Assembly: GCA_963707915.1 (NCBI GenBank)
Contig: OY970178.1
Span: 2,368,001 to 2,432,000, forward strand
Direction of reading: 5' to 3'
DNA from: Candidatus Eiseniibacteriota bacterium
GTDB taxonomy: Bacteria > Eisenbacteria > RBG-16-71-46
Length of the DNA: 64,000 nucleotides
Shown: in pieces, positions 4,816-14,251 of the stretch
Layout: every line of letters begins with the position of its first letter
How positions within the stretch are numbered: position 1 is the stretch's first letter
Position numbers and translations under genes: made by a program
The notes under the pieces: generated by a model
Told to the model about the DNA's origin: nothing
Databases searched by the model: none
The model's input: the letters and a program-made list of their open reading frames with translations, nothing else

Positions 4816-6018
4816 CTAGGAGTTCCGGAAGCTCGCCACCAGGGACACCGCCCGGCGCGGGGTGTGCGGCACCCGGCTGTCGTGGCCGCAACGCAACAGC
4901 ACCAGCGGCTCCTCGCCGGTCACGCCGAAGCGGCGCAGCAGCGGGCCGCGGAAGCGCTCGAGCTCGAGCGGCGCGTTCATCGGCTGGTGCGCCAGCCCGA
5001 GCTGCGTCGCCTTGAGCGCCAGCCGCTCGAAGGCCTGCCCGCCCACGACCCAGGACGTCTCGTCGCGGGCCGTGGTGGTCAGCAGGGCGGCGGCCCCCGC
5101 GCTGCGCACGCCCTCCCGCGCCCGCTTGGCCAGGCTGCCCGCGCCGAAGCGCAGGAACCACGAGTCGGGGTCGTAGTAGTGGCCGGCGAACCAGTTGGCC
5201 GGCCCGGTCATGCCGAGCGCGTCCACCGGCACGCCGTCACCGTGCCGCGCCGCGTCCCGGGGGCTCGAGCGCAGCCAGGCGTGCTCCTCGGCCTGGATGC
5301 GGCGGTTCGAGACCCGCTCGTGGACCGCGTCGTGCACCAGGTCGGCCAGTTCGTGGAGCGCGTCGCGACCGTCGACCCAGTACAGGCGCGGGCCATCGGC
5401 GACCTGCGCGCTCAGCTGGGCGCGGACCTGGGGCAGCAGCCCGCGCCCGTCGTAGTTGCGCCGGTTCGTCCGCCGGTCGGTCACCGCGCCGAAGAGCTCG
5501 CGGTCGCGCCGCGGGCCGCCGTCGACCCAGGTCATCTCGGCCACCGCGCCGACCGTGGCGTGCTCCGCGGGGTGGTAGCGCACGGTCGGCTGGAGCCCGT
5601 AGGCCCGGGCCGCCACGACCAGGTTCTCGAGCGCCGCACCCAGCGAGACCATCAGGCCGCGCCGCTCGGGGTCGCCGGTGGGCAGCGCGCGCTGGGCGTC
5701 GGCGAGCAGCCGGATCGATCCGGGATCCACCTCGAAGCGCCAGGGCTGGGTGTTCCAATCGCTGGGCGCGAGCACCGCCGCGCCGACCAGGGCGCGGGCG
5801 AGCTCCAGCCCGTCGGCGGGCGGCTCGGCCGGCAGCGCCCAGGGCTGCAGCGCGACGGCCTCGATGCGGGCGCGGCGCGCCCAGGCGTCCACGGGGCGCA
5901 GCGCCGTGTACGCGGCCGCGCCCCCCACGACGAGCAGGAATTCCCGACGGCCCAGCGTCCGCGGCACACGGAGGTCACGAGCGCCGGAAGCGCGCCGTGA
6001 GCGTGGGGTCCGTTCCAT
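4816..6018 (-). CDS. Acg-type nitroreductase-family FMN-binding oxidoreductase with twin-arginine signal
   Basis: LAPSDWNTQPWRF, SLGAALENL and RRTNRRNY motifs; N-terminal RREFLL followed by a hydrophobic stretch. Confidence 0.82.
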   Translation of the reverse strand: MERTPRSRRASGARDLRVPRTLGRREFLLVVGGAAAYTALRPVDAWARRARIEAVALQPWALPAEPPADGLELARALVGAAVLAPSDWNTQPWRFEVDPGSIRLLADAQRALPTGDPERRGLMVSLGAALENLVVAARAYGLQPTVRYHPAEHATVGAVAEMTWVDGGPRRDRELFGAVTDRRTNRRNYDGRGLLPQVRAQLSAQVADGPRLYWVDGRDALHELADLVHDAVHERVSNRRIQAEEHAWLRSSPRDAARHGDGVPVDALGMTGPANWFAGHYYDPDSWFLRFGAGSLAKRAREGVRSAGAAALLTTTARDETSWVVGGQAFERLALKATQLGLAHQPMNAPLELERFRGPLLRRFGVTGEEPLVLLRCGHDSRVPHTPRRAVSLVASFRNS

Positions 6019-10714: not shown

Positions 10715-11257
10715 ATGCGCGCACGTGGCGGATCGCGACCCCGTGCCGGCGCCCCCTCGCGGGCGCTGGCCCTGCTCGTGGGCGCCGTCCTCCTGATCGG
10801 GCCGACGGGCTGCACCCGCCGGCAGCAGGGCGGCGGCGCGCTGAGCTTCGAGGACCTCTCCGACCCGGCCACCCTCACGCGGGGCAAGCCGATCCTCACC
10901 TCGTTCGAGCCCTACCGCATCACCGGCCAGGCGTTGCGCGTCCGCGGCTCCGCGCGCCTGCCCGACGGCACGCGCCTGCAGGTCTCCATCGTGCGCGTGG
11001 CGACGGGCGAGCCGCTGCTCGTCGCGCAGGTGACGGTCGAGCGCGGGAGCTTCGAGTCCGCCCCGCTGATGGGGACGCGCGGCCCGCTGCCGGTCGACCT
11101 CTACCGCTTCGACGTGCTCGCGCACTTCAACGCCGCCTGGCAGACGGAGAAGGTGCTGCGGGCCACCCACGACGGCCGCTCGCTCCGGGGCCCGGGCGTG
11201 ACCCGGGGCACGGGCGGGCAGCCGGCCTTCTTCCTACGCGAGGAGCGCCGCCTGTGA
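10715..11257 (+). CDS. Hypothetical exported protein, probable lipoprotein
   Basis: Hydrophobic signal ending ...GPTGC; beta-rich domain (VRGSARLPDGTRLQVSI); GTGA overlap with the next gene. Confidence 0.6.
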   Translation: MRARGGSRPRAGAPSRALALLVGAVLLIGPTGCTRRQQGGGALSFEDLSDPATLTRGKPILTSFEPYRITGQALRVRGSARLPDGTRLQVSIVRVATGEPLLVAQVTVERGSFESAPLMGTRGPLPVDLYRFDVLAHFNAAWQTEKVLRATHDGRSLRGPGVTRGTGGQPAFFLREERRL

Positions 11258-12537
11258 GCACCCGACCCCAGCGTCCGCCCGCGATGCGCTACCGTCCCGC
11301 GCGGCGCACCGACGTCGAGACCCTGGCCGAACTCGGCCTGCTCGCCTACCGGGTCTCGAGCTTCGAGAAGCGGCGCGAGTTCTACACCGACCACCCGCGC
11401 TTCTCGCTGCGCGACGTGCGGGTCGGCGAGCTGGAGGGGCGGATCGTCGCCTCGCTCGTGCTCTACCCGCTGGTCGCCTGGGTGCGCGGCCAGCAGGTGC
11501 CGGTCACGGGCGTGGGCTCGGTCGCGGTCTCCCCCGAGCACCGGCGCCGCGGCGTGGGCGAGACGCTCATGCGCTCGGCGCTGCGCGAGCTGCGTCAGCG
11601 CGGCAGCGCCTTCTCCGCCCTCTACGCCTTCCGCGGCTCCTTCTACCGCAAGCTCGGCTACGGGGTCGTCGAGGTCGTGCAGCAGCTCGCCATCTCGCCC
11701 GCGAACCTGCCGGCCTCCGAGGAGAGCCGCCGGGTGCGCCGCCTGCTGCTGCCGGACCGGCCCGCCGTCGAGGCGCTCTACGAGCGGGTGGCCGCGCAGG
11801 GCCACTTCGCGCTGGCGCGCACGCGCGAGTGGTGGGCGCAGCGGCTCTGGGACTACCCCGGCGACTGGGTCGTCCACGAGGGCCGGCGCCGCGGACAGAT
11901 CGAGGGCTACCTGCACTACGAGGTGGACACCACGCACGGCCCGTTCCGTCTCGGCCTCACGCTCACCGAGTTCGTCGCCGCGAGCCCCGAGGCGCACCGC
12001 GGGCTGGTGGGCTACCTCGCCTCGCTCGCCGACCAGGTCCAGGAGATCCACCACGCGACGTCCGCCGACAACCTCTGGCTCGCCACGCTCCGGACCGCGC
12101 AGAACCTGCGTCCCGGCGCCGAGATGGGCGTGCTGCTCGACACCGGCGGCGTGGCGCACGGCGCGATGCTGCGCGTGAACGACGTCAAGGCGGGGCTCGA
12201 GTGCCTGCCGGTGAGCCCGCACGCGCGCGGCGAGGTGGTGCTCGACGTGGACGACCCGGTGCTGCCGCAGAACGCGCGGGCCTGGCGCGTCGCGGCGCGC
12301 GAGGGTCGGCTGCACGTGAAGCCCGAGGTCGCGGGCGGGCCCGGCCCGAAGGCCGGGCGCGGGCGACTGCCGCGACTGCAGGTGCCCGCGGACGCGCTCG
12401 GGCCCCTGCTGGCGGGCACGCTCTCCGCGACCGGCGCCGCGGCCGCCGGGCTCATCGAGTCCAGCGGCGGGGCCGAGGTGGTCGAGCCCTGGTTCCGCGC
12501 GAAGCCGGCGTTCCTCTACCCGATGAACGTGTTCTGA
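11254..12537 (+). CDS. Eis-like GNAT acetyltransferase with C-terminal SCP2-like domain
   Basis: VGSVAVSPEHRRRGVG, ALYAF...FYRKLGYG, MLRVNDV, DDPVLPQN; terminal Phe. Confidence 0.88.
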   Translation: MSTRPQRPPAMRYRPARRTDVETLAELGLLAYRVSSFEKRREFYTDHPRFSLRDVRVGELEGRIVASLVLYPLVAWVRGQQVPVTGVGSVAVSPEHRRRGVGETLMRSALRELRQRGSAFSALYAFRGSFYRKLGYGVVEVVQQLAISPANLPASEESRRVRRLLLPDRPAVEALYERVAAQGHFALARTREWWAQRLWDYPGDWVVHEGRRRGQIEGYLHYEVDTTHGPFRLGLTLTEFVAASPEAHRGLVGYLASLADQVQEIHHATSADNLWLATLRTAQNLRPGAEMGVLLDTGGVAHGAMLRVNDVKAGLECLPVSPHARGEVVLDVDDPVLPQNARAWRVAAREGRLHVKPEVAGGPGPKAGRGRLPRLQVPADALGPLLAGTLSATGAAAAGLIESSGGAEVVEPWFRAKPAFLYPMNVF

Positions 12538-12548
12538 CGGGGATCGCC

Positions 12549-12851
12549 GTGAAGTCCTCGCGCCGCAGCTTCCTCCGCCTGCTCGCCGCCGGTTCGGCCG
12601 CCACGGCGGCGACCCCGGCCGCGGCCCTGGCGCGCGCGGCGCGGAAGCCGAAGCCCGCCCCGGCCTCGCGCCCCGCCGCTCCGCCCGCGGGCCCCGCCCT
12701 GCCGCCGGCCGTGGCCGGGGAGATCCGCAGGCAGCAGGCCATGCTGGAGCAGACGCTCCAGGCGGTGCGCCGCCACCCGCTGCCACCCGGGAGCGAGCCC
12801 GCCTTCGTCTTCGCGCCGTTGCGTTCCCGCCGGAAGGCGGACGCGCCGTGA
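12549..12851 (+). CDS. Small Tat-signal protein with an AtzG/GatC-like C-terminus
   Basis: GTG at 12549; SRRSFL twin-arginine motif; C-terminal helix plus PLPPGSEPAFVFAP; GTGA overlap with the amidase. Confidence 0.7.
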   Translation: MKSSRRSFLRLLAAGSAATAATPAAALARAARKPKPAPASRPAAPPAGPALPPAVAGEIRRQQAMLEQTLQAVRRHPLPPGSEPAFVFAPLRSRRKADAP

Positions 12852-14251
12852 TCGGCGAGGACCTGCTCCACGCCGGGCTCGCCGAGCTCTCGTCCCGGAT
12901 CCGGGCGCGCCGGCTCACCTCGGTCGAGCTCACCGAGGCGTACCTCGACCGCATCCGGCGCTTCTCCCCCGCACTCAACGCGTTCGAGACGGTGGCCGGC
13001 GACCTCGCGCGCATGCAGGCGGGCCAGGCGGACAGCGAGATCCGCAACCACCGCTGGCGCGGGCCCCTGCACGGCATCCCGTACGGCGCCAAGGACCTGC
13101 TGGCGACGGCCGGCCTGCGCACCACCTGGGGCGCGGCTCCGCTCAAGGAGCAGGTGTTCGACTACGACGCCACGGTGGTCACGCGCCTGCGCGAGGCGGG
13201 CGCGGTGCTGCTCGGCAAGTGCGCGATGGTCGAGCTCGCGGGCGGGCTGGGCTACCGCTTCGCCGACGCCTCGGTGAGCGGCCCCGGGCGCAACCCCTGG
13301 GACCCCGGGCGCTGGACCGGCGGCTCGTCGTCGGGCTCGGGCGCGGCGGTCGCGGCCGGCCTGGCGCCCTTCGCGCTGGGCACCGAGACCTGGGGTTCCA
13401 TCCTCTGCCCCGCGGCGTTCTGCGGGATCACCGGGCTGCGGCCCACCTACGGGCGCGTCAGCCGCGCCGGGGCGATGGTCTGCTCGTGGACGTTCGACAA
13501 GATCGGCCCGCTCGCGCGCTCGGCGGCCGACTGCCGCACCGTGTTCGGCGCCATCGCCGGCCCCGATCCGGCCGACCCGACCTCGTCGAGCGAGCCCCTG
13601 GACGTCCGGCCACGGCACCTCGACCTCGCGGGGCTCAAGGCCGCGCTCGTGCCGCTCGACTTCACGGCGAAGGGCGCCGAGCCCGAGGTGAAGGCGGCGT
13701 TCGACGCCGCCGTCACCCAACTGCGGGTCGCCGGCCTGCGGCTCGAGGAGGCGAAGCTGCCCGAGTCGCCCGCCAGCGAGCTGGCCGGGATCATCATCAC
13801 GGAGGAGGCGCTCTCCGCGTTCGAGAAGCTCTACCAGGACGGTTCCGTGAAGCGGCTCCGGGACCCGTACGCCCCCTACCAGCCGGAGATCAACGCCGCC
13901 GTCACCGGCGCGGACCTGGTGAAGGCCTGGCGCATCCGGGGCGAGTTGCAGCGGGCGATGGCGGAGTTCTTCGCCGGGTACGACGTCATCGTGACGCCCA
14001 ACTTCATGTCGGTGGCGCCGCGCATCGAGGAGGACCTCGTCCAGGCGCTGCCCTACCCCGACCCGGTGGGCGCGATCGGCAACGCCTGCGGCCTGCCCGC
14101 GCTCGCGCTGCCCTGCGGTTTCGGCCGCGGCCACCTGCCGGTCGGCTTCCAGATCGTCGGGCCGCCCTTCAGCGAGGGCCTGCTGCTCGACCTGGGCGAG
14201 GCCTACCAGGAACGCACGGGCTGGCACCTGGAGCGCCCGCCGCTGCAGTGA
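12848..14251 (+). CDS. Amidase-signature family protein (AtzE/GatA-like)
   Basis: GPLHGIPYGAKD, GGSSSGS, GTETWGSILCPAAFCG (Ser-Ser-Lys triad intact). Confidence 0.93.
   Translation: MIGEDLLHAGLAELSSRIRARRLTSVELTEAYLDRIRRFSPALNAFETVAGDLARMQAGQADSEIRNHRWRGPLHGIPYGAKDLLATAGLRTTWGAAPLKEQVFDYDATVVTRLREAGAVLLGKCAMVELAGGLGYRFADASVSGPGRNPWDPGRWTGGSSSGSGAAVAAGLAPFALGTETWGSILCPAAFCGITGLRPTYGRVSRAGAMVCSWTFDKIGPLARSAADCRTVFGAIAGPDPADPTSSSEPLDVRPRHLDLAGLKAALVPLDFTAKGAEPEVKAAFDAAVTQLRVAGLRLEEAKLPESPASELAGIIITEEALSAFEKLYQDGSVKRLRDPYAPYQPEINAAVTGADLVKAWRIRGELQRAMAEFFAGYDVIVTPNFMSVAPRIEEDLVQALPYPDPVGAIGNACGLPALALPCGFGRGHLPVGFQIVGPPFSEGLLLDLGEAYQERTGWHLERPPLQ

Follow-up and report, generated by a model that had tools for sequence, protein, structure and literature searches.

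A 64,000-nucleotide window (the whole stretch of DNA that was analysed, from a Candidatus Eiseniibacteriota bacterium) contains a small gene that immediately precedes the gene of an amidase-signature enzyme, and the signal for export lies on one chain only: the small protein carries a Tat motif and the amidase none. GatC and AtzG are established small subunits of amidases, and the best reading of our small protein is that of a non-catalytic subunit provided with a Tat signal peptide. Judged from sequence comparison, it very likely binds the amidase. Further, it is probably a subunit of the GatC/AtzG type whose Tat signal would take both chains out of the cytoplasm by hitchhiking, as a soluble complex. 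The features of the locus are collected in Table 1.

Table 1. Features of the partner/amidase locus (window coordinates)
Feature	Positions	Strand	Basis or remark
Eis-like GNAT acetyltransferase gene	11254..12537	+	ends 11 nt upstream of the small gene
Small partner gene	12549..12851	+	100 aa; GC3 0.96; conserved in relatives
Predicted Tat signal peptide	12549..12632	+	R5, R6 and F8 invariant; motif rule
RR motif SRRSFL (in Tat signal)	12558-12575	+	residues 4-9
Uncharged h-region of Tat signal, ending ALA	12579-12632	+	motif rule
Pro/Ala/Lys-rich variable linker, in place of the first helix of longer members	12633..12701	+	alignment of relatives
Putative GatC/AtzG-like core	12702..12824	+	alignment and profile comparison
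Predicted helix of core, with invariant Arg74	12702-12773	+	from the modelled fused homologue
Tail of core, PLPPGSEPAFVFAPLR	12777-12824	+	alignment of relatives
GTGA stop/start overlap	12848..12851	+	stop of small gene on start of amidase gene
Amidase-signature enzyme, 467 aa, 49.6 kDa	12848..14251	+	PF01425; fold model
Catalytic Lys82	13091-13093	+	alignment with GatA; invariance
Catalytic Ser160	13325-13327	+	alignment with GatA; invariance
Catalytic Ser184	13397-13399	+	alignment with GatA; invariance

The small gene is contained within a longer open reading frame that begins at 11829, and the GC content of the codon positions shows which of the two is real. GC at codon position 3 reaches 0.96 in the small gene and 0.98 in the amidase gene, while the upstream part of the long frame (11829-12548) has its GC peak at codon position 1 (0.97). 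The frame of 12549-12851 is therefore the true coding frame, and the long frame is a shadow of the GNAT gene. The original prediction had proposed a small open frame with SRRSFL and an Ala-rich signal, overlapping a signal-less amidase by GTGA; the composition of the frame and its conservation in relatives confirm the gene, and the overlap is found as described, in front of an amidase N-terminus that has no hydrophobic stretch.

The small protein (10.4 kDa, or 7.6 kDa once cleaved at the predicted site) starts with a GTG codon; SRRSFL is followed by an 18-residue uncharged, Ala-rich stretch that ends in ALA, and a Pro/Ala linker and the tail PLPPGSEPAFVFAP complete the 100 residues. An N-terminal RRxF, an uncharged h-region and an AxA site, the rule that we take here as the criterion for a Tat signal, are all present. 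The h-region shows weak hydrophobicity (1.32 as the best mean over 12 residues), and the Pfam TAT_signal model gives E 0.28 for this protein and matches 14 of 27 family members (best 1.4e-5). As a control for chance, stop-terminated 100-aa tails from the six frames of the genome were scanned for [ST]RRxF[LVMFI] plus at least 12 uncharged residues; 2 of 16,688 satisfied both, the small protein itself being among the scanned sequences.

Conservation was followed in 30 loci, which gave the best matches to the amidase in 41 genomes and include the window's own locus and a paralogue. A separate upstream open frame with the Tat-like RRxF motif is found in 29 of them (28 of 29 without the locus L021, which comes from the unpublished genome G026), and the remaining locus, cut by the end of its contig, still shows the helix and tail. 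R5, R6, F8 and R74 are invariant in all 27 aligned small proteins, an alignment that omits L002, L003 and L020. Both the pairing of the two genes and the RR motif, on whose retention by homologues the original prediction had staked its case, are hence kept in related genomes. An AxA site likewise occurs in 27 of 27, a weak test in sequences so rich in Ala. The stop/start overlap, which likely leads to translational coupling, recurs in 8 of the 30 loci, and in the others the small gene ends at most 36 nt upstream of the amidase.

What is the part of the small protein that follows the signal? Longer members of the partner family are built of a helix, a conserved Gly, a second helix and a tail. 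In the subfamily of the small protein the first of the two helices is replaced by the linker, and helix 2 and the tail are kept; by alignment to a folded homologue we infer a single helix. That homologue belongs to a set of fused relatives, in which a paralogue from a related genome forms one 615-residue chain of Tat signal, core and amidase. The N-terminal 125 residues of this chain match 766 proteins among 1,289 candidates; RRxF occurs in 111 of 120 listed proteins of the fused family, and PF01425 in all but one. Twelve further loci, picked from phylum-wide matches to the partner profile and partly for their long open frames, comprise seven fused and five split cases. The AlphaFold model of one fused homologue (P0125) has helices at 39-49 and 55-76 and an extended tail, with pLDDT 60-85 in this block and a mean of 86.9; a fold search with the model listed amidase chains alone.

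The fused relatives also provide the bridge to the known subunits. A profile HMM of the core scores at least 10 bits on 109 of 116 fused N-domains (shuffled sequences reach at most 6.6 and reversed ones 2.2), and HHalign joins the core to the fused N-domain at 97.4% (E 1.2e-11) and the fused N-domain to eight GatCs at 94.0% (E 1.4e-7), the matched part being the N-terminal half of GatC. The core HMM gives AtzG of pADP-1 13.5 bits, ungapped over 54 columns, a score reached by 0 of 2000 shuffles; it does not separate GatCs from shuffled GatCs. In the ESM Atlas a signal-less member produced an AtzG-like lead at 0.85, and the small protein itself three clusters at 0.92-0.93, with recognition below threshold. 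Against the sequences of the PDB, both the small protein and its profile brought up generic helices alone. The direct HHalign links are weak (core to AtzG 17.7%, core to GatC 13%, fused N-domain to AtzG 5.5%), and the Pfam models for GatC (PF02686) and AtzG-like proteins (PF13318) show no match to the small protein at E 1. Across 104 cores each of these two models is touched by three, all below the cut-off, and PF13318 matches none of 21 relatives and, alike, none of 14 controls, a comparison that carries no information; the partner family is without a Pfam model. Because the direct links are weak and the Pfam matches lie below cut-off, the homology is to be read as remote and partly transitive: on profile evidence the core belongs, at superfamily level and by way of the fused N-domain, to the GatC/AtzG-type small subunits of amidases. 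The AtzG likeness that the original prediction saw in the tail survives as such remote homology, and membership of the Pfam family, which was to be sought by HMM search, does not.

The proposed course of events can be put simply. Coupled translation would yield both chains together, and the helix and tail, some 40 residues, would bind the amidase in the cytoplasm and help it to fold or keep it in solution, in the manner of AtzG with AtzE. Once folded, the complex would cross the membrane via TatC on the signal of its partner, the signal would be cut after ALA, and the exported enzyme would hydrolyse an extracytoplasmic amide, nutrient scavenging being the most plausible purpose. TatC is found in this genome above its profile cut-off. 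The complex has a computed mass of 57 kDa as 1:1 and about 115 kDa as 2:2, and even the latter would fit the Tat pathway, since cargo of up to 150 kDa is quoted in the accessible part of one source (PMC6708511). If the partner binds as AtzG does, a Tat signal on it would be useful only by moving the complex. Counting for hitchhiking is the same signal borne by the enzyme chain itself in the fused relatives; counting against it are the loss of helix 1 in this subfamily, which leaves less binding surface, and the 10 of 80 surveyed amidases that have no adjacent partner.

The survey in question was of loci from named genomes and covered the best 80 of 593. By the motif rule 59 have an adjacent Tat-bearing partner, and one more (L123) a partner that is Tat-like but below the threshold of the rule; eight have a clearly signal-less partner of 65-85 aa, one is ambiguous (L125), one is truncated, and the ten already mentioned complete the set. 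Judged by record titles, Tat-bearing partners occur in Acidobacteriota, Planctomycetota, Chitinophagales, Anaeromyxobacteraceae and Xenobia, and signal-less ones in Chloroflexota, Bathyarchaeia, Rokubacteria and Methylomirabilota; both haloarchaeal pairs examined, on two plasmids, have a Tat partner. The core profile recovers 2,207 clusters at 50% identity (E up to 0.001), with RRxF in 107 of the best 150 clusters and in none of the 18 shortest, and within the phylum it matches 107 of 151 genomes, G026 included. Among the ten genomes without an adjacent partner, six contain a core elsewhere: three Tat-bearing and two signal-less cores have no amidase within about 1.5 kb, and one lies beside a different amidase. 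No core was found anywhere in the other four, whose genomes may be incomplete. The five cores that lie away from any amidase (L142, L143, L145, L146 and L147) possibly act in trans.

Considering this distribution, an unnamed and widespread clade of amidase-signature enzymes may well have turned a GatC-derived subunit into a detachable address label, possibly one that works in trans. A Tat-bearing partner, split or fused, in bacteria and haloarchaea, would then send the enzyme out, and a signal-less partner would leave it inside; the label in the present lineage would consist of one helix and a tail, about 40 residues.

The three Tat-bearing cores that have no amidase within about 1.5 kb are also compatible with an independent role. 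Perhaps, then, the amidase remains cytoplasmic, and the small protein either assists transiently in its folding or is exported by itself. Besides the orphan cores, such a scheme could call on the fact that the link between the two chains is one that we draw from sequence, with a reduced core, and on the signal-less, presumably cytoplasmic branch, according to which the enzyme can work inside. However, lone export of a 7.6-kDa peptide that is mostly linker leaves the invariance of RR and F unexplained, and it is difficult to see why the same signal and core should sit on the amidase chain in the fused relatives. We regard this scheme as doubtful.

Export of the bound complex might instead end at the membrane, if the signal were left uncleaved, or lipidated in some members, so that the amidase were anchored. 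Two partners, L118 (2740-2995) and L147, have a Tat motif and then, after the h-region, a Cys that we take to be lipobox-like, and these are possibly membrane-tethered versions; moreover, 4 of 27 members weakly match the model of the uncleaved PetC anchor (best E 0.022). The h-region of the small protein itself, however, has the weak hydrophobicity given above, ends in ALA and contains no Cys, and the AxA site found throughout the family argues, within the limits of that test, in the same direction. Tethering is quite unlikely here, and a soluble complex remains the preferred reading.

The amidase is readily recognised as a member of its superfamily, PF01425 giving 321.8 bits against a cut-off of 27. 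Lys82, Ser160 and Ser184, which we take to be the Ser-cisSer-Lys triad, are invariant in 99 of 99 aligned amidases and in register with GatA. The GatA alignment begins at residue 9 of the amidase, whose first 45 residues contain no hydrophobic stretch (longest uncharged run 7), and no signal is found at the N-termini of the 99 aligned amidases, where the longest uncharged run is 13 (median 7), most rows beginning at the start of the alignment. The fold model (pLDDT 97.3) superimposes on GatA with Z 52.5 and rmsd 2.2 over 457 aligned residues and on AtzE with Z 50.1 and rmsd 2.0 over 441; for GatA, AtzE and peptide amidase together Z is about 50-52 and rmsd 2.0-2.3. Assignment to either named family was rejected: the enzyme scores 266.9 against the TIGR00132 equivalog cut-off of 481.1 for GatA, and for AtzE 259.2 against 461 (NF006631) and 252.5 against 425.75 (TIGR02715).

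Two quick IQ-TREE runs, one of 79 rows and one of 62 rows with a mixture model, place the split-Tat, fused and signal-less amidases in one clade (SH-aLRT 100 in both), separate from GatA, AtzE and the other amidases of these genomes; the 79-row tree left out 22 Tat rows chosen at random, most close relatives and fragments below 350 aa. Nine fused rows form a single branch (100); that the fused forms stand apart on their own branch, yet within the clade, supports the partnership and not an artefact. Seven signal-less rows fall within one branch (100) that is nested among Tat-bearing rows, which suggests that the Tat signal was lost once. Loss of the Tat system was considered as the cause and rejected, TatC being present in 4 of 5 genomes with signal-less partners. 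The deep order inside the clade is without resolution in the tree, which gives no ranking of split-first and fused-first. Partner and amidase distance matrices are correlated (Spearman 0.61 for 99 pairs, reached in 0 of 500 permutations), a result that we do not count as support for partnership because linkage alone predicts such similarity. Outside the studied clade, the amidases of L133 and L134 have an in-frame, signal-less N-terminal extension that looks GatC-like by eye.

Could the pair be a divergent GatCA of the tRNA amidotransferase, with an incidental RR motif? The best structural and sequence matches are to GatA, and many database entries of close homologues bear that name, but the score far below the GatA cut-off, the separate clade, a core without the C-terminal half of GatC, and a true gatC-gatA pair elsewhere in this genome (C1:576623-578274) make it highly improbable. 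A sequencing error or a programmed frameshift that divides a single fused gene might be suggested by the fused homologues and by a -4 overlap that would fuse through a -1 shift, but this reading has next to no chance and is refuted by comparative data. The partner-amidase junction ranges from overlap to a spacing above 250 nt, and in several relatives a stop stands in frame 1-5 codons ahead of the start of the amidase; in addition, every orthologous locus examined has two separate genes, and the 120 closest amidases listed are all unfused (421-488 aa), the fused forms being one separate branch, so that the worry of an artefactual split, raised in the original prediction, falls away.

How does partner-carried Tat export compare with known systems? 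In the accessible part of its description, AtzG has no catalytic function and builds an obligate heterotetramer with AtzE, which is insoluble without it (PMC6219798). The AtzG-AtzE pair (1-carboxybiuret hydrolase of Pseudomonas sp. ADP, PDB 6c62) likewise consists of an amidase-signature gene and, directly in front of it, a small gene for a non-catalytic protein, and AtzG aligns to our core free of gaps, a PLxPxSE-like tail included. Unlike the small protein, however, AtzG has no signal peptide and retains the first helix, and our amidase lies below the AtzE cut-offs and in a different clade. GatC-GatA of the GatCAB transamidosome has the same gene order, and the N-terminal half of GatC matches the N-domain of the fused relatives as given above; compared with GatC, the small protein lacks the C-terminal half and has an added Tat signal.

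The closest published precedent, not named in the original prediction, is the caddie-tyrosinase pair MelC1-MelC2 of Streptomyces, in which, according to the accessible portion of the report (PMC2758597), a signal-less enzyme hitchhikes on a small Tat-bearing helper whose gene likewise stands before its own, and the paralogous pair MelD1-MelD2, without the Tat motif, stays inside. As far as that portion goes, the signal-less clade found here mirrors MelD1-MelD2. The MelC proteins are unrelated to the small protein and the amidase. MelC1 delivers copper, and amidase-signature enzymes, to our knowledge, have no cofactor. Tat hitchhiking is otherwise established for hydrogenases (HybO-HybC), formate dehydrogenases and PaoABC, where, in the parts of the sources that are accessible (PMC4273604, PMC10924467), the signal is on one subunit only, as here, and the enzymes use redox cofactors, the signal-bearing subunit having a redox role of its own. 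In contrast to these redox carriers, the carrier proposed here would be a minimal structural peptide.

Hitchhiking and amidase small subunits are each known, and the open-access literature searched contained no case of a Tat hitchhiker with the amidase signature, so that their combination in these enzymes is new to that literature; the published hitchhikers found are redox or metal enzymes. If the reading is true, a cofactor-free hydrolase carried by a 40-residue structural partner widens the rule that signal-less means cytoplasmic. Many soil and sediment genomes may hold a mis-named (GatA) and mis-located extracytoplasmic amide hydrolase, because the partner family is large, Pfam offers no model for it, and its amidases frequently carry the GatA label. 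Nature provides three states, with the signal present in a split pair, present in a fused chain, or missing from a split pair, and these offer a direct test of how small subunits set localisation; the partner module might also be used as a carrier tag, or to supply the solubility partner that is missing when such amidases are expressed.

The genes around the pair give no hint of a substrate: the neighbours, the GNAT gene and a thioesterase-like gene, stand upstream in close relatives only. The GNAT gene was found upstream in 20 searched loci, 17 of them among the 30 loci of relatives, a synteny restricted to close relatives. In most family-level relatives (L004-L019) the thioesterase-like gene separates the partner from the GNAT gene, and tblastn of the present genome did not find this gene. 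All four amidases of this genome are preceded by a small upstream open frame. One further case is a second Tat-partner/amidase pair, L036 (G000:C1:1807897-1809700, minus strand), whose partner has the two-helix form, and a third amidase is preceded by a signal-less small frame. In a different amidase branch, L037 (G000:C1:2867700-2869294, plus strand), L132, L135, L136 and L141 have signal-less small upstream frames of AtzG-like build with no Pfam match. At L159 (G138:C11) the match to the amidase switches frame near residue 343, owing to a frameshift or an assembly error. Finally, on the minus strand of the window, 4816-6018 encodes a nitroreductase-family protein (PF00881, E 5e-10) with an N-terminal Tat-like RREFL motif and a hydrophobic stretch.
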